Source of the DNA: Callorhinchus milii | Taxonomy: Eukaryota | Reading direction: 5' to 3' | DNA: 64,000 nucleotides | Assembly: GCF_018977255.1 (NCBI RefSeq) | Contig: NW_024704742.1 | Coordinates: 1,738,001 to 1,802,000 of the forward strand | Part shown: piece after piece, positions 2,760-63,370 of the stretch | How positions within the stretch are numbered: the first letter of the stretch is position 1 | How the letters are laid out: each line of letters starts with the position of its first letter | Program-made: the position numbers and the translations under genes | The notes under the pieces: generated by a model | Database searches by the model: none | What the model was told of the DNA's origin: nothing | What the model saw: the letters and a program-made list of their open reading frames with translations, nothing else

Positions 2760-3110
2760 CAGCAACAACATTACATTTATAGAGCACCTTTCACGTTGGG
2801 AGGACATCCCAAAGCACTGAACAGTCAGGTGTCGGGGCCCGAGGTTGGGGAGGGGTGGGGTAGGGGTGAGGGAAGGCAGAGAGGTGGGAGGGAGACCAAA
2901 GGCACGGTTGAAGAGAAGGGTCTTGAGACCGGCTTTGAAGGAGGCGAAGGAGGGAGCGACGCGAAGGGACCGTGGGATGGAGTTCCAGAGTGTGGGGGCA
3001 GAGAGGCCGAAAGCCCGGACACCGGTAGGGTGGGTCGGGCGGGAGACATGGAGCAGCCCGGAGCCCGCTGAACGGACGGAGCGGGCAGGTTGGTAGGGAG
3101 GTGGGAGGGC
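2760..3110 (-). mobile_element. L2 LINE 3' end
   Basis: Reverse complement gives an L2 ORF2 end and 3' UTR ending ...gtgctttgggatgtcctcccaacgtgaaaggtgctctataaatgtaatgttgttg; homologous to 24737-24910 and 51471-51698. Confidence 0.75.
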
Positions 3111-12494: not shown

Positions 12495-13280
12495 GAAAAC
12501 AAAGTAGATCACATATTGTCATTATGTCCAGCCCTGGCTCAATCTGAATATCTGATCAGGTATAATAATGCAGCTAAATATATACACTGGACAATCTGCA
12601 AATACTTTGATCTTGATGTAAAGACCAACTGGTATGAACATCAACCAGCATGTGACATTGAAAAATAACACCACAATAATCACAAGTACACACAGGTAGA
12701 ACAGTGATCTGTAACAAACTAGATATTATCACAAAGGACCAAATAGATTCTACGTGTATTATTGATGCGGTTACAACTGTGTAATTATCACCTGGGTTCA
12801 ATTCCAGGCAGGTCAGGGCGAAACCTTGGGCAAGTTTCCTTACTCCACACGCCTAATAATAATCCCTCCAAAACAAAACACAATAGTAAATTGGTTATTT
12901 TCAATCCACGGCTGTTTGTGAGACGCTGCTGTGCGCAATTGGCCTCCGCCTTTCGCCTTCAAATATACTGTCAATTCACTTTACAGCATATTCTGTGAAG
13001 CGCTTTGAGACGTCGAGAAGACATGAAAAGCGCTATATCAAATGCAAGGATTATTATTATTAGAACTGAAGAAACAAGGAACAAGAGAAGATCAGGACGT
13101 ATATCGATCTACAAGTTGAATGTGGACATGTAAGGCAGTATGAAACAAACAGTTCCTATCGTCATTGCGGCAACTGGGGCTGTCAACAAGACTATTCAAA
13201 AATGGCTTGGCAAAATATCAACCTCCCGTAAAAAAGTAGCTAGTTTAGGAAGTTCAAGCATATTAAGAAAATTTACATCC
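12495..13280 (+). mobile_element. Decayed R4/Dong-clade (RLE-type) non-LTR retrotransposon C-terminal region, interrupted by a SINE at 12791-13061
   Basis: Manual translation: ENKVDHILSLCPALAQSEYLIRYNNAAKYIHWTICKYFDLDVKTNWYEHQP / HTGRTVICNKLDIITKDQIDSTCIIDAV / KEQEKIRTYIDLQVE / TVPIVIAATGAV / KVASLGSSSILRKF. This gives the second half of a CCHC knuckle, RHN-like and WYEH motifs, a degenerate NRPDI..D core, and EKxxKY and VPIVIGALG-like motifs. Confidence 0.8.
12791..13061 (+). mobile_element. Deu-domain SINE, short (internally deleted) subfamily, 5'-truncated near the B box
   Basis: cctgggttcaattcc (B box)...gggcgaaaccttgggcaagtttccttactccacacgcct|aataataatccc...(TTA)n tail. Confidence 0.9.
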
Positions 13281-15434: not shown

Positions 15435-17639
15435 TCTACATCTCTTCTACGTACTGAAGGGATGGGATCTCTCCAAGGAATTAATATCCGCTGCTTTTTT
15501 GGGGGTCGTGTGTTTCACTATATTGTGGGGAAATCCCCAATCCTTTTATCTCGCTTAAGGATTGCTCATATCATCATGTGCGTTCCCAGTTGGACCTGAT
15601 CGTGTCACTGGATAATGACCACTAGGACCCCAGCCCACAGTTTCCACCTCTGCCAAGTCTCTTGTGTATAAATCTCATATTCATTCGCTTTTACAGATTG
15701 ATTTATAAATTAGATATCGTGCTAACTACAGAGGTCGTGCAGATAGATCAATGTCTTGGCATTGGAAGAGACTATTTGGGCAGCTCATTGCCCCAGAAAC
15801 ATGCTGTTTAATAGCTGCCCTGCTTCTAACATAATGATTGTTTTGCCACGAGTACTCATTGCGGGCTGCACAGTGGCAGTTTGTGCCCAGGTTATCTTTA
15901 GAAAGAGAGAGCAAAGAGGCTTGCTGATAGTTGCTTTTGCTTTCCTGCGGAATTTCTGTCCCACTGTTAATTGGATAATTGTAGGCAAACTTGTCTCTCA
16001 ATTAAACAGATTGGAGGCCTATTTCTTTCCACGTTTCTTTCCACACCATTGCACGTGCAATGCCCTTGCCTCAGGCCTACAGAGCAATTGTCTATTCTCA
16101 AGGTAGTTATCACCCTCCTGTGTATGCTTGTGATGCAGTAGGACTCTACACGGACTCCAAAGCTTGTATTTTAATGCTGCCTGACCTGCTGAGTGTTCCC
16201 AGCGTTTTCTGTTCTTGCTTATATTTTAATGTACTGCCTTTGTCTATATATATTAGATCTTGGATCTCTAGGACTGATTGTGTGGGTTATGAGGATCAAG
16301 CTCAAGAGATGCTCTATTGCTCCATTCCGTTTATACTAATTAATGTAATAAATACTGCAATTATTCACGGTGACTCCTGAAATTATGTGTAATAGGTGCT
16401 GACATTTCTATTCTCTGTATCAGAGAGGTATAGAAATTCGGTTTCTAAGTGGTGTTTCAATGCAGCACTCGAGAGTGCTGAATTGTCAGAGTTTCAGCCC
16501 TTCAAATGAGATGTAAAGCTGAGTTCTTCTCTGCCTTTTCCTCACATTGACGTTAAAAATGCCATAGCACAAATCTCAAAACAGAAACAAGGGCGTATCT
16601 CTTGGTGAGCATGCGGTCTTGAACCCACAACCTTGTGACCCTGAAGCAATCAATGGTTCTGGCGAACTGAGCCAAGCCAATGTGTAAACTGACCAGAGTG
16701 GGCCAAATGAGAGTGAAAGTAGTTTTGTGAGTCTGTGGGTTTATTATGGATTTTGGTAGAAGGAGTATCAGAGGTAGAGAGGGTAGAGGTCGAGATGGAC
16801 CAAGTCAAAGTGCAGGTTAGCTGGTAGTAAGAGACAGAGCCAACTTCTCCTGGTCAGAGTGAGAGCAAGGTACAGGCTCTCTATCAAACCTGTAGTTCAC
16901 TGGATACATTTGCTGTAGAGTATTTTTTTGTTCAGGAATGGAAAAGATTAAATGATCATCGAAGTTCAGTTATACATTGTCTTATAGCAGTAAAGCTGTA
17001 GACTGTATAGCAGAGAAATAGGAAGCGCTTTGAAATGTCTCAACGATGTGATAAGGCACTATATCAAATGGAAGGATTATTATTATATGATCAGCCCAAC
17101 TAGTTTATGCTTTACATGAGTCTTTTATACATATCCGAATCCTCTCCGATCTCCCTCCCTCCCTCTATTCCTTGTCCCTTGTGTGTCTGTGTGTAAGTTT
17201 CCTGTAAAGTGCAGAACTAATCCTGACTCTCAGGATAGATTTCCTTTTGTGGGTGTTTGTTTTTTTCTTTCGATGATGATGAAAGTTGGAGAATTAAAAA
17301 TGCTAATGTTATTTATTACACTTGAATTTCCTGTCACTGTTGTGTCACAGTAACGTAATTATGAATGATAGTACTCGTGTGTTGCAGTCACACTGGGCAC
17401 TCTGTGATTACTGGAATACAAATAACTTCTGTGTTTCAGTTCAGCTCATAGCTTCCCGATGGACCATCCTCATAGCTAACCTATTGAAGCGTGCATCAAT
17501 GAAATTGATCGAACCCTTGACAATAGTTTTTTTTTTTGGCAGGTTTCGATTTTACAGCACCCATCTCATTTATTTCAGCAGGCAACGCGAACAATTTCCG
17601 TAGTGCCCTTCATTTCGAGGAGCTTCAGGCTGCTGATTT

Positions 17640-18733: not shown

Positions 18734-19247
18734 GATCTTTGCAGAACAACTTGATAAGGTAGAACTTGTTCAGTCTTCAAAAGAGTTGTCTCAGAAGGGA
18801 CCTCATAGAGGTAATGCAAGATGCTGAAAGAGACAGAGAAACTAAATTCCAAATAAAGGTAATTTTAGTAATAAGAGAAGACTCAAAAGCCAATTTTTGT
18901 TTAAGCCTTTAAGGCAATAAACAGAATGTATTTCACATGGAAGGTAATTAATGTCTGGAAAGGATTACCGAGAAGATTTACAGAGGACAGGATACCAGAA
19001 TGCTTTAAGAAAGCTGTATAGGAAAGAAAGTAGACTGAGCATCGTGGGATGATGAGCTGGCGAACCTTGTTCATCTCTACCTCTCTTTAGATTTTAATAT
19101 TGAATGATGTTGACAGTGGTTGCCAATAGTTTCAATAGTTTGCGTTTCAAACAGTGGATGCTATTGAGAATGCAACGCTGCATTGGTCTTACTGCCCTGT
19201 TCCCATTTGGCAGATGTTTTATGCATTCAAACGCTTATGGCGATATC

Positions 19248-19351
19248 AAACAAAAACAGACGTGGCTGGGAACACACAGCAGGTCAGGCAGCATCTTCGG
19301 AGAAAGGAAAGTGACTCAACGTTTCGGGTCCGAGACCCTTCGTCAGAACTG
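19248..19351 (-). mobile_element. Penelope-like element pseudo-LTR fragment
   Basis: gctgggaacacacagcaggtcaggcagcatc...aacgtttcgggtccgagacccttcgtcagaact; homologous copies at 16178-16218, 40147-40236, 61585-61715 and 63207-63370. Confidence 0.7.
19314..19350 (-). ncRNA. Minimal type I hammerhead ribozyme motif (Penelope-associated)
   Basis: The minus strand reads AGUU-CUGACGA-A-GGGUC-UCG-GACCC-GAAAC-GUU-GAGU: CUGANGA box, 5-bp helix II, GAAA box, palindromic AACGUU helix III and a GUU triplet. Helix I has one mismatch in this copy. Confidence 0.65.
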
Positions 19352-22300
19352 AGTCAATCCTTAGAGTGCAGGGGAAGGGAGAGCCATATTTTTCAGCTGG
19401 TTGTATATTTGAATTGTTTTCTTAATGTATAAAGGTTAACTGTAACCAAGGCCTTCAAAAACTACAGGCGCACACTGATATCCAATCAATAACCCATTTC
19501 ATATGGTAACGTTTGCCATTCTCCTGTCTGAATGCATGACAATTATGCACACTTAGCGGGCAGGAAGACAGATCTGCAATAGATGGACTGCTCTAACATT
19601 GATCAATGCAGTCTGTTCCTGTAGTTGCTTCTTTCACCTGGGTCCATTTAACTTATAGTCTGTGAATATGCAATCTTTCAGAACCAGGAAGTATGATGAA
19701 GCAGGCACTATAGATTCTGCAGCTCTTACAGTCGTAAACCAGTGATTTCAAAAACGTCTGAGGAATAAAGCAAATGAAATCATTGAGGGTAGATCCGTTG
19801 AAAAAAAAATCCCTTTGGCTGTTTATACTTCTGCGGCATTTAGAAAATAAAGATCTCAGTGCGTATGTGAATCTCTTGAAGTGATTCATTTCATCAGGAC
19901 ATGAAACTTGTGCATCGAGGAACTTGCTTACCTTGCAAGCCATTCTGTGTAGAACGATTCAGATTGCACACTTAATTTGAGCTGTAGCTTGTTCGTTTCC
20001 AATTAGCATCGTTTATCGACTGAACAAAGTGTTGATACAGTTATGATGACCCCGATTTAGCGCAGTGCTGTTAAATACCATAAACTGGAAAGCACTTCCC
20101 TCACACAAGCGGGGCAGAGCCTGAAAACCTGTCGCAAACCTTCTTTGATGCAATCTTTTTGTAAACGCAGAGCAGCTTCAACTTCCACTCCATTTGGAGC
20201 CGTAATTGGCCTTCGGGATTCAATCTGTTTACACCGCACGAGGTCGATTCCACCGCACTGGCCGCGACAGGCAACTGCGTGTCATGTATGTCCTGAAGTC
20301 GCAAGCCCGGTACGGTGACTTTCGTTGCTGCTCGTTGAGCTGCGTGCGATGAAGAGTTTTGTGTTCGGGTCCTGAAAGCTCAGCCCAGAAAAAAGGGGCA
20401 GTCAGCGCTGGTGTCTGCGGCAAACATCTCTGTTGACTCCCTGCAACACTATTTAGCTTCCCCAGCGTGTCGTCCTCTTATTGAACTTCAAGACAGCCGC
20501 CCGGGTTATCAATCCTGTTATAAAATGTCATTTTAGACCGCCCTCCCCCCCCCCCCCACTCTACTCGTAAGTTGAGGCACGCCCTCAGCTCTGTGAGCTA
20601 AAGCCCTAATGGAGAATCCTAGAGCTCTAAAAATTGACGGCACAGAAGACGGCCATTTGGTCCATTGCATCTGTACCGGCTTTTTTAAGAGCAATCCTTT
20701 TAGTGCCGTTTACCTGCCTTATCCCTGTATCTCGTGTGTGTTTTGAGAATTCTACATTTAATGGTCCTTGCCAGGATAAGTGATCTTAGTTGGCAAGCAC
20801 CGTTAAATGTAGCATTCTCAAATACAATTCTTCTGAAGTTAAGCTCGACACTTTAAAATATGCCACTCTAACTACACTCGGACTATGTTTCATTCTGGGC
20901 ATCGCACCACACACAAATATATATATTTGCTTCCTGTAAAGATATATTAGAGAAAGATTTTAGTTCAGAAAGAAGAGGATTAAGCAAGGAAATGTTCTCA
21001 TGGTACAGTTAAGTGCTGATAAAAAATAATAATTCTTGCATTTGATGTAGCGCCTTTCATATCGGGATGTTCTGTAAAGTGCAATGAGACTAATATAGCA
21101 GTCAGTGTGTTAATTATTCTGCATCATTGTTTTGAACGGGTGAGCTGAGAGCTATTATTAAATATTTGAGCGGGCCACTATTTTCTAAACGATTAGATAT
21201 CTTAATCGGTCAATACAAAATGTCAGCCCAGATGCCTGCAGTAACAAAGCAACACATCTTCAGCATTGCATTGGAGCACCAGCAGAGACGATGAACTTGT
21301 GCCCATGGATTATTGCTATCTCCCAATATGTGCTATTGGGACGCTAGCGATCACATAAGAACACGTTTTACTTGCCTGACAGAAGAGAATATCAGAACTG
21401 AAACCCAGGTATTATTGCTCTTTGGAGCTGAGATGCACTGAAGCAAGAACAGCACACACCATGGATCTGAATCAGAATGGTCATTCCAATATAAATGCTG
21501 CACTAATAGGCTTCCTTTGGAGAGACTGCAGATCTTAGGATAATTGCACAGTGATATCTGTAAAGTTTTATGAAGGCTAATTAGGTTTCTGTTTTTTTTT
21601 TGATTGGTGATTAGGTTACAGCAAGCTGCTGCAGTCCATCTGAAAGAGCTACTATTATCATTACATTCTAATGAGGACGTACTATATATGATTGAGTGGT
21701 ACCTACAGTGGAAAAGGGAACGTGGCCTGCTGATTCAAGCGCAAAGTGACAGTCTGGTGTTTGAACTAATCCAGAGTCTCTTTTCCTTGCTGGCGCCAAT
21801 TCATTCCGCAAGTGCTCTCGAAAGTGATTAAGTGATTGAAAGTGATGCGTTTCCTTGCTATTTTTAAATCCCTTTTTCTAATTCATAATTTGCAATTTAA
21901 ATTTTTGCACCAGGTTACGTGTGTGTACGGCTAATGTCTGCACTGTTGGAGGGCTGAGACCCCAGATTTTATGTTCGGTGGGACAGGCCTTTGCTGGACT
22001 ATACTTTGTTGTGATTTGAGGCTCTCACTGTTGAAATTCCCACAGATTCTTCTTTGGTTTCATTGCTTGACGACTGGTTATTACTTAAGGTCCTTTGCCA
22101 TACCAGGCAATGCTGGTGCTACAATCTGGTTTAAGCTGTTAGATCTCGGACATAGATATACAAGAGGGTTATGTGCTTTCTGAGATAATATCGCTGTTGA
22201 TTGGGTTTTCCTATTTCATGCTTTCATATGTTTGCCCGCAAAACACAGTCACTCCACTTTAAAGTACAATACTGTGAAACAATTTGAGACATCCTTCTGA

Positions 22301-28039: not shown

Positions 28040-28350
28040 TTGAGAATTGGCCACCATCTGATCTTGAGGATTTTGTTCAGACTCAATGTTTGTTATAATT
28101 GGAGCTAAAACCCTTAAATGTGAATCAAGAAAATATTTCTTCACACAAACGCTTGAGAGAACGTGGGACGTACTGTCCCAGGATGTTATAGAATGTTGTC
28201 CATACTTCGGGAGGAGATGCGCAGGTATTTTGCATGTTATTATATTCAGTGGGATATGGGGAGAAAAGGCAAAGAATTGATAATAGAAAGGTGCCACGAA
28301 ATATANTTTTTTTTGTGTGGCACGCTTAAAGGGCTGAATGCCTATTCCTG
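28040..28350 (+). mobile_element. CR1 LINE 3' fragment (contains the single N at about 28306)
   Basis: KCESRKYFFTQTLERTWDVLSQDVIE followed by a 3' UTR ending gggctgaatgcctattcctg. Confidence 0.7.
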
Positions 28351-28577: not shown

Positions 28578-28888
28578 AGTGGAGTCCTGTTGCTCAGTGG
28601 TTAGAGCACTCGCCTCGCAAGTGAGAGACCTGGGTTCGATTCCCAGCAGGCCGAAACGTCGGGCAAGTTTCCTTACTCCACACGCTCCTGTTTACCCAGC
28701 AGTAAGCAGGAACCCGGTTGCTAGTCGATTGGTGGATCGGGCTTTTGGCCACTACGCCCCGAAACTCTGGAACGCTCTTCCTCTGTCCCTCATTCTTGGC
28801 TCCTCCTTGGTGTTGTGCTCCACCACTGTCAAGCGCTGTGGGGTGCAAACCTCTGTGAGAGGCGCCATATAAATGCGACACTATTATA
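28578..28888 (+). mobile_element. Chimeric element: SINE 5' half (tRNA-Ala-like head) fused to an L2 3' end
   Basis: A box ttgctcagtggttagag, anticodon arm ctcgc-ctcgcaa-gtgag and B box ggttcgattcc. SINE body runs to about 28740, then L2 text DRAFGHYAPKLWNALP and the tail aggcgccatataaatgc. Confidence 0.75.
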
Positions 28889-38279: not shown

Positions 38280-38595
38280 GTCGAGGCGTCTCATGAATGG
38301 TTTCGACGTAATTGGACATTTTGTGGACGAAACGAGGCAGCCAACTGCGCACTGCAGTGTCCCACAAACAGTCGTGGATTGAGTGACCAAATTATTATGA
38401 ATTTTTTTTTGAGTGATTATTATCCCCGTAAAAGCGAACTCCCAATCGACTGACAACTGGGTTCCTAGTTACTGCTGGGTAAACTGAGGCGTGTGTGTGG
38501 AGTAAGGAAACTTGCCCGATGTTTCACCCTGTCCGGGAATCAAACCCAGGTCCTCCCGCTTGCGAGGCGAGTGCTCTAACCCCTGAGCAACAGCA
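38280..38595 (-). mobile_element. Young Deu-domain SINE (long subfamily), head present, tail degraded
   Basis: Reverse complement: gctgttgctcaggggttagagcactcgcctcgcaagcgggaggacctgggtttgattcccgg...tccacgactgtttgtgggacactg. Confidence 0.85.
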
Positions 38596-39499
38596 CATGA
38601 AAGGTGCTCTGCCAAAGAATTATTATTAGCGCCTTTCACCCCAGGACAACATCTTGTCAAACCATTTTGTCAAAACGGTTACAGGATATACTGCAAGGTG
38701 TGAAGTACTGTGTAATTTGTTGATAAATCTGTTGGCAGAATTGTGTTCCTGCAAATTCTGTGTTTGAAATAGTGTTCAGGTCGGGTTTGCTGCTAACTGT
38801 GTGTGAAAGAGTATCGCAGATCAGCTTAATCATACAATCAAAAACCACTGCAGAGGATTTATAGTCATCTGGAAACATTTACATTGGTTATTATATCAAT
38901 CAAGAACATCTGTAACTCTTAGATTAATCACGTGGGCTGCTATCAATAGCTACAAATTCACCATAATCAGATTCACCCAACGATGACCATTAAACTCTGT
39001 AACTGGTTCAGAAATGCAATAAATCCGATGGGTTTTTAGTAAAAATTTTTTAGTCCCTGATTTCTAAATGATTGCTAAATTAAATCCTACCGATTTGGAA
39101 AAAGGACCTTTCCTACAGAGCGATGTATAAATCAACCTTGCTCTGTCTGTTGAAAAGCCGTGCATCTTGCAGTCAATGCTATTGCTACATTTGGTCAACG
39201 CATTAATAAATCTGTAGAGGAACGATATTATTCATCACGACTATATATTTTTTTCTCTCTGTCAGTGAGGCAAAGCCGTTAGCCTTCCAGAAACATAATC
39301 TGCCATTATTGTCCAGAGATTTATGACTCTAGACATTGTCCGGACCCTCAGTCTGATTGAACACTTCTGTAGAAAAAGACTTTGGAGAATGCTTTTCCTA
39401 TGTTGGTAAATGTACAAGTGTTTGCTGGTGTGCGTACTTGCAGTGGGAATGTATTCATTGTGATGATAATTAATAGTTCCCTCAACTCCCTTCCCCTTT

Positions 39500-39780: not shown

Positions 39781-40146
39781 ATTTCTGGAATACAAAATAA
39801 AGCAAAAGACCATGTTTAGCAGTGCTGGAAGTAACGAGATTATTTGTTTCAGACATTGTGTAATGACCGCTGTTCTCTCGAGGCAGCTCCAGATACAGAT
39901 TCAGGAAACTGTCGACTCGCTTACTGCAGACTGGCACAGGTGCTTGAGAACTGAGACATTTCAGTAAGTTTCTCCCAAGCTGGAATAACTCGCGTAGGAA
40001 GACGCCATGCGTGGTTAATCTGTACTCTGTGCGGAAAGCGCCTTGATCACTCATATTTTTTGAAAAAGTCTCCTCTTGAAGACAAGACAACCTTTTCGAT
40101 GGCAGTGCATTTGCTTGTAAGCACAAAGCCAGTTGTTCTCTTCAAT

Positions 40147-40236
40147 GGAAACGGAAGCAGAAGTGACTGGGAACACTCGGCAGATCAGGCAACGTCTATG
40201 GAGAAAGGAAAGTGAGTCAATGGTTCGGGTCCATGG
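40147..40236 (-). mobile_element. Penelope-like pseudo-LTR fragment, truncated within hammerhead helix II
   Basis: gactgggaacactcggcagatcaggcaacgtctatggagaaaggaaagtgagtcaatggttcgggtccatg, homologous to 19248-19351. Confidence 0.7.
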
Positions 40237-40777
40237 GGGGGAAGCAGGGTGAGGACGACAAAGGAGAAAATAATTGACCGCCATGTTCAAACCCAAGGCT
40301 CACAGCGACTCCAATTTATAGAATATCCCGTGAAGCTCGTCCTGAGGCGCTGCACCAAATGTAAGGATTATCGTTACCATCTCAAGGTATAATGTCAGCT
40401 CAAGGCTCATTGTGGGACCTCGGTGTGCACAATAGGACTGCCGTGTTTGCCTGCGAAATAACTCTTGAAAGTAATAAATGTAAAGAGCTTTACGACATTT
40501 CAACGAAATGATGCCAAACAAAAGTGTTGGTTTTTTTTTTCCACTTCGAATCAAACCCTGGGTCCCAGGCCTATTCCTGTTCCGCCACCAGTCACTCCAT
40601 CTCATCTCAGAAACACTCGTGCTCCTGGCCCCAACTTCCATCCAATTACAATCCTGGCTTATGAGGCAAGTCTCTCCTTTGTGAAGACTGTAAAGGCCGC
40701 CCTGTGCAGTCTAAATTACAGAGCAATTTGTCCGAAAGGGCTTCTTACTCCAACCTCTCTTGTGATTACAGTCTGGA

Positions 40778-45219: not shown

Positions 45220-45620
45220 AACGGCCACTCACTCCATGGCTGTTTGGAGGCTCACCTACAAAAATACACACAGTCACTGCTTATCACATTATATCCTGAG
45301 AAGCACTTTGAGACATCTCGATGATGTGATAAAGCGCTATATCAAATGTTATTAGTATAATAATAATCCTTGCGTTTGATATAGCGCTTTTCACGTCTTC
45401 TCGACGTCTCAAAGCGCTTCACAGAATATGCTGTAAAGTGAATTGACTGTATATTTGTGGGCGAACGCGGCAGCCAATTGCGCACAGCAATGTCCCACAA
45501 ACAGTCGTGGATTGAAAATGACCAATTTATTATTGTTTTGTTTTGGAGGGATTATTATCAGGCTCTGTGGAGTGAAGAAACTTGCCCAAGGTTTCTAACC
45601 ACTGAGCTACAGGGCTCCAC
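45220..45620. mobile_element. Tail-to-tail SINE pair: + remnant 45220-45350 and - short-subfamily copy 45358-45620
   Basis: ...gataaagcgctatatcaaatg ttattagtataataataatcc ttgcgtttgatatagcgcttttcac... Confidence 0.85.
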
Positions 45621-51435: not shown

Positions 51436-52024
51436 AATAATAATAAACCTTGCATTTGACACAGCGCCTTCTCTTTGACCGTGCCTTCAGCTCCCCTCTC
51501 AACTCTCTACCCCCTCCTCGCTCCCTCCCTTCCCTCCCCTCACCCTGACCATTTCCCCCCTCCTCGCTCCCTCCCTTCCCTCCCCTCACCCTGACCATTT
51601 CCCCCCAATGCTCGGGTCATGACCCAACTGTGCAGCGCCTTGAGGCGTCCTCCTGACGTGAAAGGCGCTTTATAAATGGAATCTTGTTGTTGTTGTTGAT
51701 CACGTCTTCGAGACGTCTCAAAGCGCTGCACAGAATACACTGTAAAGTGAATTGACCGTATATTTTGTGGGCGAAATGCGGCAGCCGATTGCGCACAGCA
51801 GCGTCCCCACAAACAGTCGTGGACTGAGTGACCGCATTTTTTTTAAGGGATTATTACCCTCGGAAAAGAGCTCCGCCAATCAACTAACCACTAGGTTCCT
51901 ACTTACTGCTTGATAAACAGAGGCGTGTGGAGTAAGGAAAATTATCGTATCGCTCTGTCCGGGAATCAAACCCAGGTCCTCTCGCCTGCGAGATGAGCGC
52001 TCTCACCACTGAACTACAGACCAC
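51436..52024 (-). mobile_element. Full-length young SINE (long subfamily) split by an L2 insertion
   Basis: The tail piece ending ...acagcgcctt (to 51470) resumes as atcacgtcttcgag (from 51699); tRNA head at about 51955-52024. Confidence 0.9.
51471..51698 (+). mobile_element. 5'-truncated L2 3' end with (TTG)n tail nested in a SINE; contains a 46-bp tandem duplication
   Basis: ctctttgaccgtgccttc...cagcgccttgaggcgtcctcctgacgtgaaaggcgctttataaatggaatc(ttg)n; unit starting tcctcgctcc occurs at 51515 and 51561. Confidence 0.85.
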
Positions 52025-57109: not shown

Positions 57110-57430
57110 GTCCTGTAGCTCAGTGGTTAGAGCACTCGCTTTGCAAGTGAGAGACCTGAGTTCAATTCCAGGCAGAGGGCGAAACCTTGGGCAAGTTTCC
57201 TTACCCCACACACCTAATAATAATCCCTTCAAAAACCAAAACAATAATAAATTGGTCATTTTCAATCTACGACTGTTTGTGGGACATTGCTGTGCGCAAT
57301 TGGCTGCCGCGTTCGCCCACAAAAAATATACAGTCAATTCACTTTACAGTGTGTTCTGTGAAGCGCTTTGGGACGTCCTCCCGATGTGAAAAGCGCTACA
57401 TCAAATGCAAGGATTATTATTATTATTATT
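57110..57430 (+). mobile_element. Essentially full-length SINE, short subfamily
   Basis: gtcctgtagctcagtggttagagcactcgc (A box)...gagttcaattcc (B box)...cacacacct|aataataatccc...Deu segment...(TTA)n. Confidence 0.9.
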
Positions 57431-61035: not shown

Positions 61036-61584
61036 TTCCTGGCAGAACTGGTGGATACAGGAGTGAAACACTTCTCAGGAAAGCATTAGTATTTTCGGGT
61101 CGGCATCATGTATTTTTGCGTTGGCACGATGTCAAGAATCTCCCTGCAGAAAGCAGGTCTAGTTGTGAGATGTTATTTTTGTGGATGAGGCACAAAGCAA
61201 CATTTTTTTTTCCCCCCAGCTCCCCACATGCCCAATCTCGCGTATGAGCACTCGTGTGTATCTGCGCGTGTGTGTGTGTGTGTGTACACGTGAGAAGTTG
61301 AACGCAAAAGCAATGGGTGGAAAGTAAATTATAACGGGGAGGAAATAATTAAGCTGTGTCAAGTCGTTCTGTTTGTATTAGAAGAATGACTCCAGGATAA
61401 TAATATCATTGTGATCGAAATGAAGAGTGCAGGGCACCGTATATCAGCAAAGACTGCGAAAAGCTACCTGTGACAATCTCATTACTCAACAGGCTACATA
61501 CAGTATGGCCTTTGTTTTTTAAAACAAGAAACTTTCAACGAGCTTTAAATTGTTTGAGACAATGGCGTTATTACAAGTGAACAC

Positions 61585-61715
61585 GGAAACAGAAGTCGCT
61601 GGGAACACTCAGCAGGTCAGGCAACATCCAGAGAGAAAAGCAAGATGCTGCCTGACCCGCTGACCGTTCCCCAGCGACTTCTGTTTCCAGATTGCCAGCA
61701 TCTGCAGCATTTTGT
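61585..61715. mobile_element. Fold-back derivative of the Penelope-like repeat (arms 61585-61628 and 61644-61688)
   Basis: ggaaacagaagtcgctgggaacactcagcaggtcaggcaacatc, a 15-nt spacer, then gatgctgcctgacccgctgaccgttccccagcgacttctgtttcc. Confidence 0.8.
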
Positions 61716-62451
61716 GTTATGGCAAATGTTGTGGCAATTGTAAGTTAAGAATACTGCCCTCCCCTTAAGCTGTCTGACGATTAGAATGAGAATATTTCCG
61801 AACGTGATTACACGTGCTGATAAGGAAACGGAATAAGAATGGCCTTGGGGCGTCCTCCTGACTTAATTTGTGGTTTGTCGTCGTCGTAGTTTTCTTCCAC
61901 CAAATTGTGGCTCCTGGCTCCTGCAGTGAAATTAAGCTTCACGCAAACATGATATGGGCAGTGTAAGATGTACGTTCAATCTCTCCTTCCGTAAGGCCAT
62001 TTGATGACAACTTTATTAACATTCCCATCATGAGACTGACATATTTCCGCGTCTCCTGCTGGAGCAGGAGGTGAGCTCTGCAGCGGCGTAATACGAACCA
62101 TCCAATGTTCTAAAATCCGACTTTAATCAACACTGATAGCCTTTAAATACCGCGGTGCCGGTGAAGGGGAAAGAAAATAAGGGAATCTTTCTTTTCAATT
62201 TGTTTGCGCACGACAGCAGGTTCACTAATTCACTACGCCTGGTTGTTGCAGGACATTTTTCAATCAAAACGAAAGCAGAAACCAGACTCTCCGTACCTGC
62301 TTCGGTCTGATTTGACAGCAACTTTATTGATGTGGTTTTAAAAAAAAAATGTCTTTCACTTCATGGCTATTTGTGGGACACTAATGTTTCCAAAATTGGG
62401 TACTGAGTTCACCTACAAATACAGTCACTACCCTTTGTAGCAAAATAATAT

Positions 62452-62785: not shown

Positions 62786-63206
62786 CTTCTTGTAAAGTAC
62801 TTTGAGACGCCTCAACAACACGAAGGATTGCTATTTCAAATCTATTATTATTTGAGCAATAAAACAGTATGCAACTTGAACATATTCAAACTATTCAGGT
62901 CCAGCAGCACTGAAATCACTGGCCCGGCCCGTGTGCAATTAATTCACAACTGTTAGATCTTGTGTTTTGCTTTTCTTTGTATTTTTATTTGCAGCTTCTC
63001 CTCAGCTGCCCATCTGAAGTGCGCTGTGTTTGTACTGAATACTTGGCGGTGCTGGTGAGCAGCCAGGCTGAAGCTCGTGTCCTAATACTTCTTTGAGGTG
63101 TTGGTTTGAAGACCACCTTGTTGTAATATCAACCCAGTGGCTGTGAAACTCACTGGGCTCACTCCCTGTAGTCCATTATAAGCTCTCACTGGCTCAGGTC
63201 CACCAC

Positions 63207-63370
63207 CCCTTCGTCAGAACCCAATTCTAGCCTTAACCCAGTTCTGACGAAGGGTCATGGACCCGAATCGTTCACTCACTTTCCTTTCTCCATAGATGCT
63301 GCCTGACCTGCTGAGTGTTCCCAGCCATTTCCGTTTTTGTTTTCAGGTTTCTAGCATCTGCAGTATTTGC
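63207..63370 (+). mobile_element. Penelope-like pseudo-LTR with mutated hammerhead core and inverted partial copy
   Basis: cccttcgtcagaac (63207-63220) is the reverse complement of gttctgacgaaggg (63241-63254). The core reads AGTT-CTGACGA-A-GGGTC-ATG-GACCC-GAATC-GTT-CACT. Confidence 0.75.

Follow-up and report, generated by a model that had tools for sequence, protein, structure and literature searches.

A minimal hammerhead motif at the head of a high-copy repeat and its probable descent from a Penelope-like retrotransposon

Introduction

The window, by which is meant the whole 64-kb stretch of DNA analysed here, contains one short segment whose minus strand reads like the core of a hammerhead ribozyme. 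The question raised by this locus is whether the segment is a ribozyme kept by the host, the remnant of a mobile element or a resemblance that arose by chance, and what its relatives elsewhere in the genome reveal about the RNAs from which they were copied.

The minimal hammerheads (min-HHRs) of metazoan Penelope-like elements (PLEs) provide the main comparison. In the parts of the published sources covered, to which this and all later citations refer, min-HHRs are described as lacking helix III and loop 3, as having a palindromic 15.2-16.2, a G10.1-C11.1 pair and a short helix I, and as presumably acting in the form of dimers; their cleavage in vitro is weak and is seen in dimers or trimers only (Cervera & De la Pena 2014, PMC4209133). 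Their genomic copies number in the thousands and are mostly solitary, with opposite-strand pairs at spacings of 100-700 bp (PMC4209133). The motif in the window is very probably the min-HHR of a Penelope-like retrotransposon, kept in one solitary, 5'-truncated insertion of about 110 bp. Short, solitary, slightly damaged and one of thousands, the fragment is a typical instance of the kind described in 2014, and the locus itself, a decaying member of a class that has been in print since that year, matters little. The family to which it belongs adds a clean example of cartilaginous-fish type, and its insertion ends can act as a fossil record of the forms of RNA that were reverse-transcribed.

Structure of the motif

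Read directly from 19350 to 19314, the minus strand gives AGTT CTGACGA A GGGTC TCG GACCC GAAAC GTT GAGT (Table 1). This agrees letter for letter with the original prediction, which had described both catalytic boxes, helix II, the extra A and the palindrome. Helix II is a perfect helix of 5 bp in which the closing pair G10.1-C11.1 is kept, and helix III is cut down to A15.1, C15.2, G16.2 and U16.1, the palindrome AACGUU, without a loop. By standard hammerhead numbering, cleavage is predicted after U17 of the triplet GUU, between 19318 and 19317. Helix I of the window copy forms three of its four pairs, namely G.U, A-U, a G/G mismatch (1.3/2.3) and U-A in order, and every CpG inside the motif is still present. 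The motif stands at the head of a repeat of about 110 nt that extends over 19248-19357 according to blastn.

Table 1. Positions of the hammerhead motif, its parts and related family copies in the window
Feature	Position	Strand	Basis or remark
Minimal type I hammerhead motif (min-HHR)	19314..19350	-	direct read; sole descriptor match in window
Helix I strands	19350-19347 and 19317-19314	-	
Catalytic box CUGACGA (C3-A9)	19346-19340	-	direct read, intact
Extra unpaired A between A9 and helix II	19339	-	direct read
Helix II hairpin GGGUC/UCG/GACCC	19326..19338	-	19338-19334, loop 19333-19331, 19330-19326
GAAA box	19325-19322	-	direct read, intact
C15.2/G16.2	19321/19320	-	
U16.1	19319	-	
U17	19318	-	
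Region 3' of motif to short-form insertion end (GTTTTTGTTT)	19248..19313	-	70 nt past predicted cut
Last bases of family homology upstream of motif; 5' end of truncated copy	19351..19357	-	
Second family copy, decayed hammerhead, with tail extension	63233..63368	+	blastn extent 63233-63345
Short inverted fragment (hammerhead 5' half and helix II), head-to-head with second copy	63197..63220	-	by eye
Third family copy	40143..40271	-	two collinear blastn pieces, gap in reference
Head-to-head inverted pair from region 3' of motif, hammerheads absent	61570..61722	.	
Family fragment from region 3' of motif, hammerhead absent	16174..16220	+	

The published min-HHR consensus, 'NNN CUGANGAH GNNNNN ... 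NNNNNC GAAAN palindrome NU H NNN' (PMC4209133 supplement), fits the motif position by position, and the interpretation as a PLE minimal hammerhead is therefore supported. More specifically, the motif shares with the metazoan PLE min-HHRs the box CUGANGA followed by an unpaired A (the H of the consensus), the GAAA box, G10.1-C11.1, the palindromic C15.2-G16.2 and the U-H cleavage site. Its helix II of 5 bp compares with 4-8 bp in the published class, and its helix I, with three of four pairs in the window copy and four of four in the family majority, compares with 3-5 bp. The species named in the covered part of the supplement to that survey include no cartilaginous-fish-like host, and the words 'shark' and 'Callorhinchus' are absent from one of its two supplement files (PMC4209133).

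Parts of the same design occur in other hammerheads. Newt satellite 2 and Schistosoma Sm-alpha reportedly carry type I hammerheads with a weak helix III and a palindromic loop that are presumed to act as dimers. The hammerheads of animal satellites and non-LTR retrozymes thus resemble the present motif in their type I topology, their palindrome and their presumed action as dimers within multimeric transcripts, whereas their real helix III with its loop, their loop-loop contacts, their tandem arrays and their detection by Rfam models have no counterpart in the family described here. An extra A between A9 and G10.1, such as the window motif possesses, is said to occur also in a viroid hammerhead; that hammerhead differs in belonging to a plant viroid and in having full-length helices.

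Chance occurrence and model searches

A descriptor scan of both strands of the 64-kb window recovered exactly one motif, that at 19314-19350, and no second one on the same strand. In 300 simulated windows (Markov-2), the relaxed form of the descriptor, consisting of the boxes and a helix II of at least 4 bp, is expected 0.30 times per window, and the full minimal-hammerhead descriptor did not occur at all. The loose pattern CTGANGA-N(4-30)-GAAAC has 6 matches in the window against 1.31 expected. A chance match is ruled out for the motif, which heads a high-copy repeat.

Covariance models gave a different kind of answer. An Infernal search with the Rfam hammerhead models had been put forward as a check on the original prediction, and it returned no hammerhead. 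At gathering scores, cmscan of the whole window yielded tRNA-like SINE heads and chance matches only, and at E<=10 no hammerhead model matched the segments 18800-19900 and 19290-19375 or one family-majority copy. The motif thus falls outside the canonical Rfam hammerheads (types I, II, III, HH9, HH10), an absence that is expected because it is without helix III.

These two results bear in opposite directions on the idea that the core is a mere look-alike, arisen by chance in the tail of a repeat with no ribozyme history and with its boxes kept since the repeat is young. The silence of the Rfam models is what such a look-alike would lead one to expect; the complete failure of the full descriptor to appear in simulated sequence, and the coincidence of eight independent published min-HHR traits in a single motif, are not. 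With the further evidence given below, this explanation appears very unlikely, and the reading of the motif as a PLE min-HHR is preferred.

Family size, decay and copies in the window

Searches covered the window's own genome, of 991.5 Mb in 1,762 contigs. A query of 126 bases gave 1,716 first-look candidates, of which 40 were scored, yielding 47 matches that are mostly 85-93% identical to the window copy; several of the family alignments begin at query positions 4-10 of 126. The size of the family was estimated by pattern counts, each of them set against a control with the reversed pattern, and comes to at least 3,000-5,300 copies. The pattern GTTCTGA-N(26-32)-CACTTTCC, which requires the 5' edge of the motif and the first bases past helix I to be intact, occurs 3,013 times against 54 in the control. 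A tail-anchored pattern of 35 places, with its anchor just past the motif and 20 free bases upstream, occurs 5,301 times (control 122), and a word of 27 bases from the region 3' of the motif 2,421 times (control 0). The fully intact motif of the main subfamily was counted 378 times and that of a second subfamily 171 times, each against 0 in the control, and the loose two-box pattern gave 15,619 matches genome-wide against 6,611.

Among the matches listed, damage to the copies consists mostly of CpG transitions (CG to TG or CA) at the four CpGs of the motif. In the first 100 matches listed of the 3,013, the motif is strictly intact in about 15 and intact with wobble pairs in about 27; tallies from listed matches were made by eye and may be in error by a few. 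Helix II double changes that restore pairing (GGTTC/GAACC and GGGTT/AACCC) were seen as single copies on contig 1, near 6498541 and 8971384, and may reflect either chance in decaying copies or traces of minor source lineages. Words from 19251-19331 reach repeat-level depth in the contigs of four runs, whose origin from RNA is a guess and which carry neither strand nor end information.

The arrangement of the copies resembles that of the metazoan PLE min-HHRs, which share with the family the mostly solitary copies in their thousands, the pairs on opposite strands and the association with reverse transcriptase (RT) and GIY-YIG sequences. Among the first 100 matches listed of the 3,013, no head-to-tail tandem arrays and no same-strand neighbours less than 2 kb apart were found; neighbours within 1.1 kb of each other all lie on opposite strands, and one same-strand pair occurs at 2 kb. 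The tandem arrays that characterize animal non-LTR retrozymes are thus absent among these matches.

Within the window itself, relatives of the motif were found by blastn. The original prediction had spoken of three copies, which is right only in part for those at 19248, 63233 and 40143. The copy at 63233 has the whole motif with the GAAA box changed to GAAT and with CACT as the 3' strand of helix I, and the copy at 40143-40271 has an internal deletion, in which the 5' half of its hammerhead is lost together with the last part of the 3' UTR. Further fragments consist of the region 3' of the motif or of an inverted hammerhead half (Table 1).

Linkage to a Penelope-like element

The claim that the family derives from a PLE was borne out by physical linkage, by the manner of insertion described in the next section and by the fit to the min-HHR consensus. 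Of 30 loci fetched with the window copy, 13 show homology that extends upstream over distances which vary and can exceed 850 bases. The DNA upstream of the motif in these longer copies is itself a high-copy repeat (1,342 first-look candidates) and contains broken frames with an RT core, a Cys-rich CxxC linker and then a GIY-YIG-type motif (VVYCIRCSRCGLLY.G.T...GDRF.EH). In seven loci (L033, L034, L036, L038, L040, L042 and L044), the hammerhead motif lies downstream of RT/GIY-YIG frames on the same strand; in L042 the frame occupies 1707-2624 and the motif 3043-3085, with a tRNA-type SINE inserted between them. PLEs are defined by an architecture in which a single frame encodes an RT and, C-terminal to it, a GIY-YIG nuclease (PMC4209133).

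Protein comparison gave concordant results. The L042 frame is 42% identical to protein P0001 over 75% of the query (E 2.3e-46), and the RT frame of L077 is 41% identical to it (E 3e-38). P0001 combines RVT_1 (28.0 bits) and GIY-YIG (21.8 bits) in one chain, both below the curated Pfam cut-offs, and the genomic frames also score below these cut-offs (RVT_1 16.5 bits, E 0.007; GIY-YIG 16.7-16.8 bits, E ~0.009). In the Atlas, the clusters closest to P0001 consist of animal proteins that combine HTH_animal, RVT_1 and GIY-YIG.

Among the candidate loci examined, none proved to be a full-length element whose reading frame is flanked by the motif at both ends, and several candidates were rejected. 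L075 (contig 4, 54255600-54260900) holds two second-subfamily copies 4.7 kb apart that were considered as a pseudo-LTR pair and have no RT frame between them; the direct repeats that hold these same-strand copies share 98.9% identity across at least 626 bp, and the locus is a recent segmental duplication. The same-strand pair at 2 kb, beside L011, has unrelated DNA between its copies, and L077 and L078 are both 5'-truncated. A genome search with Pfam GIY-YIG produced just 2 matches, and both belong to another PLE-like family of older appearance. This second and more decayed family, observed at L031 and L032 (contigs 1 and 12), has the N-terminal motifs ADKG...MD and LPKVHK; its GIY-YIG match is above the Pfam cut-off, and no credible hammerhead occurs within 1.5 kb of it.

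In the parent element, as it may be pictured from these copies, the hammerhead would lie a few hundred bases downstream of the RT/GIY-YIG frame, about 70 nt upstream of a short-form 3' end and about 105-110 nt upstream of a long-form 3' end. By analogy with the published min-HHRs, a long or tandem transcript that contains two motifs could join them by pairing at the palindrome ACGU, and the paired motifs would make a double hammerhead that cuts after GUU.

Insertion ends and the state of the copied RNA

Insertion ends were compared at 59 loci, a sample that is not random: 30 were taken for their similarity to the window copy, and the other 29 because they match the motif of the second subfamily exactly. 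At 16 of these loci the copy extends upstream into the 3' UTR by variable lengths, at 20 an inverted, 5'-truncated partner lies immediately upstream, and at 23 the copy ends within a few bases of the motif; in all, 43 of the 59 have either an end at the motif edge or an inverted partner there. Downstream, insertions end 70 nt after the predicted cut in the short form and about 105-110 nt after it in the long form, the extension of about 35-40 nt past the short 3' end being present at 27 of the 59 loci. The window copy (L001) ends at the motif (class END) and has no such tail (extension score 7). Frequent 5' truncation, an adjacent inverted 5'-truncated copy and a tail of 30-40 bp are published hallmarks of PLE insertion (Craig et al. 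2021, PMC8557442), and the insertion features of the family match those of the EN+ clades.

Cleavage of the RNA at the hammerhead ahead of copying should have left many insertions whose first base is the one that follows GUU. By eye, about 96 of the first 100 matches listed of the 5,301 cross the cut site and include the 3' half of the motif, and the reverse-transcribed RNAs were therefore mostly uncut at the motif. Of these first 100, one has a head-to-head junction exactly at the cut, and 2-3 have unrelated upstream DNA, a number near the 2.3 chance matches expected from the control; at most 1-3 of the 100 copies listed thus start at the cut. The rarity of copies that begin at the predicted cut, and the many that begin just upstream of the motif, sharpen the question of what role the hammerhead plays in PLEs.

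The Poseidon element of Anolis carolinensis (PAc) offers a close parallel. Its hammerhead is located at the pLTR-ORF junction, the reading frame starts at the hammerhead, and the ribozyme is active in cleavage and sensitive to mutations at C3/G8 (Frangieh et al. 2024, PMC11167929). Reverse transcription begins at two internal RNA sites shortly downstream of the hammerhead; the interval between them is the tail of 30-40 nt, and genomic copies end there (PMC11167929). Hammerhead mutants leave insertion in vitro unaffected, and the account covered reports no RNA-seq reads ending at the cut (PMC11167929). Common to PAc and the present family are thus a hammerhead shortly upstream of two alternative 3' ends, an optional tail, and ends at the cut that are rare or undetected. 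The spacing differs, at roughly 85-92 nt in PAc (by arithmetic from quoted positions) and at about 70 and about 105-110 nt from the cut here. This shared position relative to the PLE frame and the insertion ends, in an element whose hammerhead cleaves, again speaks against a chance look-alike, and the insertion ends of the family agree with the finding in vitro that the Anolis element can insert without hammerhead cleavage.

As a separate observation, family copies have a TAG with an ATG directly behind it about 20 nt past the predicted cut, on the minus strand near 19292-19294 in the case of the window copy; this ATG, a putative start, opens the frame MLPDLLSVPSDF...

The abundance of copies that end at the motif edge suggests that the 5' ends of many template RNAs lay a few bases ahead of the motif. 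A tentative and rather doubtful extension of this is that the hammerhead-headed units of about 105-140 nt are not random truncations, being instead run-off copies of RNAs that start 4-10 nt upstream of C3. Transcription would then start at TCAGTT, just ahead of the motif, and reverse transcription would begin internally, some 70 or 105 nt beyond the cut, and run to the 5' end of the RNA. The word TCAGTT before the motif also fits an initiator-like word. Were the run-off reading correct, the element RNA would open with the hammerhead as its first structure, and the genomic record would show uncut RNA to be the normal template, given that about 96 of 100 listed copies cross the cut and at most 1-3 start there; this would bear on the purpose of PLE hammerheads.

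Within the 60 nt that precede the motif in L023, L009, L054 and other loci, the last part of the 3' UTR is a run rich in pyrimidines, closed by a CAG that abuts the helix I strand. To judge from its letters, this arrangement looks like a 3' splice acceptor. In the Penelope element of Drosophila virilis, the 5' edge of helix I reportedly marks the end of an intron (Cervera & De la Pena 2014, PMC4209133).

The same insertion ends bear on a rival explanation, in which the units of about 105-140 nt form a distinct non-autonomous mini-retroelement, SINE-like or retrozyme-like, that is mobilized by the PLE enzyme in trans and of which the window copy is one. The 43 of 59 loci that end near the motif (23) or have an inverted partner there (20) are what such an element would leave, its units keep the region that holds both alternative 3' ends (27 of 59 with the extension), and a 2026 preprint derives animal non-LTR retrozymes from PLE pLTRs (10.64898/2026.07.22.740005). 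However, the units match the 3' end of the autonomous element collinearly and with about 90% identity, 16 of the 59 loci continue into the 3' UTR, head-to-tail arrays are absent among the first 100 matches listed, and the choice of loci by similarity or intact motif was not random. A separate mini-retroelement is thus conceivable rather than probable, and the units are better regarded as 5'-truncated insertions of the PLE itself.

Covariation, folding and probable activity

An alignment of 56 family copies, in 45 distinct rows, was used to examine pairing. The original prediction had inferred AGUU/GACU as the helix I of the family, and this equals the majority in the alignment, in which all four pairs, including a G.U, are formed. 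Overall, 92.4% of cells pair in the alignment against 6.9-46.5% with slid partners, and the pairs of helix II are kept in 97.7% of cells across the 45 distinct rows. The extra-A column (19339) is invariant in the 56 family rows. The pair 15.2/16.2 is C-G in 29 distinct rows, U.G in 5 and unpaired in 11, mostly from CpG decay.

Covariation of helix II across genomic copies had been named beforehand as a test of the motif. It is present, and is confined to one compensatory pair: 10.1/11.1, read as GC in 28 rows, AU in 15 and GU in 1, is the only one of 11 pairs with change on both sides, and its replacement of G-C by A-U is a single event between the two subfamilies. Position 1.1 also differs between them, G having become A opposite U2.1. 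The published survey describes 'consensus families full of covariations' (PMC4209133), compared with which the covariation within this genome is much poorer because a single lineage with two subfamilies dominates. Change on both sides at one pair only would suit a chance look-alike, whereas the absence of core positions from the five at which the two subfamily majorities differ inside the motif would not; as evidence, this avoidance of the core is weak because the changes are so few.

Thermodynamic prediction gave no signal either, a further point on the side of a look-alike. The minimum-energy fold of the window copy as a monomer has -16.3 kcal/mol (z -1.27), and the folding z-scores of -1.27 and -0.35 are not significant. 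The double hammerhead of the window copy is predicted at -8.5 kcal/mol against a dimer minimum of -41.6, and those of two natural family copies at -15.9 against -55.9 and -11.1 against -32.1, in energy models that leave out the tertiary structure of the hammerhead core.

The original prediction had also proposed that flanking TGACTC and GAGTCA could supply an alternative, out-of-register closing stem. The complementarity is real, and the stem TGACTCA/TGAGTCA is used in the monomer minimum-energy fold; its supposed effect is another matter. In that predicted fold the stem is continuous with a pairing of A6-C7-G8 with C15.2-G16.2-U16.1, and U17 is paired as well, so that the core and the cleavage-site U are sequestered. 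The stem needs both the C-to-G change that sets helix I of the window copy apart (GACT to GAGT) and the particular upstream bases of this copy. Arising from changes specific to this copy, it is therefore fortuitous, and marks an inactive conformer rather than a rescue of helix I.

The window copy is most likely an inert fossil, to judge from the modelled fold, because its helix I has a G/G mismatch, a stable fold sequesters its core and no same-strand partner lies nearby. Amniotes have conserved intronic hammerheads. A similar co-option of the window copy by the host, as a working intronic antisense ribozyme or regulatory RNA, might be read from its intact boxes and helix II and from the survival of all CpGs in its motif; by eye, an intact motif is kept in only about 15-27 of the first 100 family copies listed. 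It is nevertheless one of thousands of copies that decay in a neutral, CpG-driven pattern, its helix I is mismatched, its stable predicted fold pairs the core and the cleavage-site nucleotides, and the 64 kb contain no second same-strand motif with which a dimer could form; published min-HHRs, moreover, cut poorly even as dimers (PMC4209133). Co-option by the host is thus highly improbable, and the motif is best viewed as a decaying relic of the PLE.

Other features of the window

The original prediction had placed the motif antisense in a putative CCSER1 intron; of the 134 open frames in the window with a length of 85 aa or more, none has a Pfam match. The segment 58000-61200 is a tandem duplication with a period of about 1.6 kb, whose units are 98-99% identical and give rise to paired open frames of equal length, and a single N occurs at position 28306. 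The Rfam tRNA model, at 30-58 bits, marks tRNA-derived SINE heads at 28583-28654 (+), 38525-38596 (-), 51951-52022 (-) and 57113-57175 (+), and about 20 further fragments of tRNA-derived SINEs are present, for example at 12792-13062, 45357-45595 and 57111-57428. The body of the SINE in the window matches that of the SINE inserted in L042 between the PLE frame and the hammerhead.
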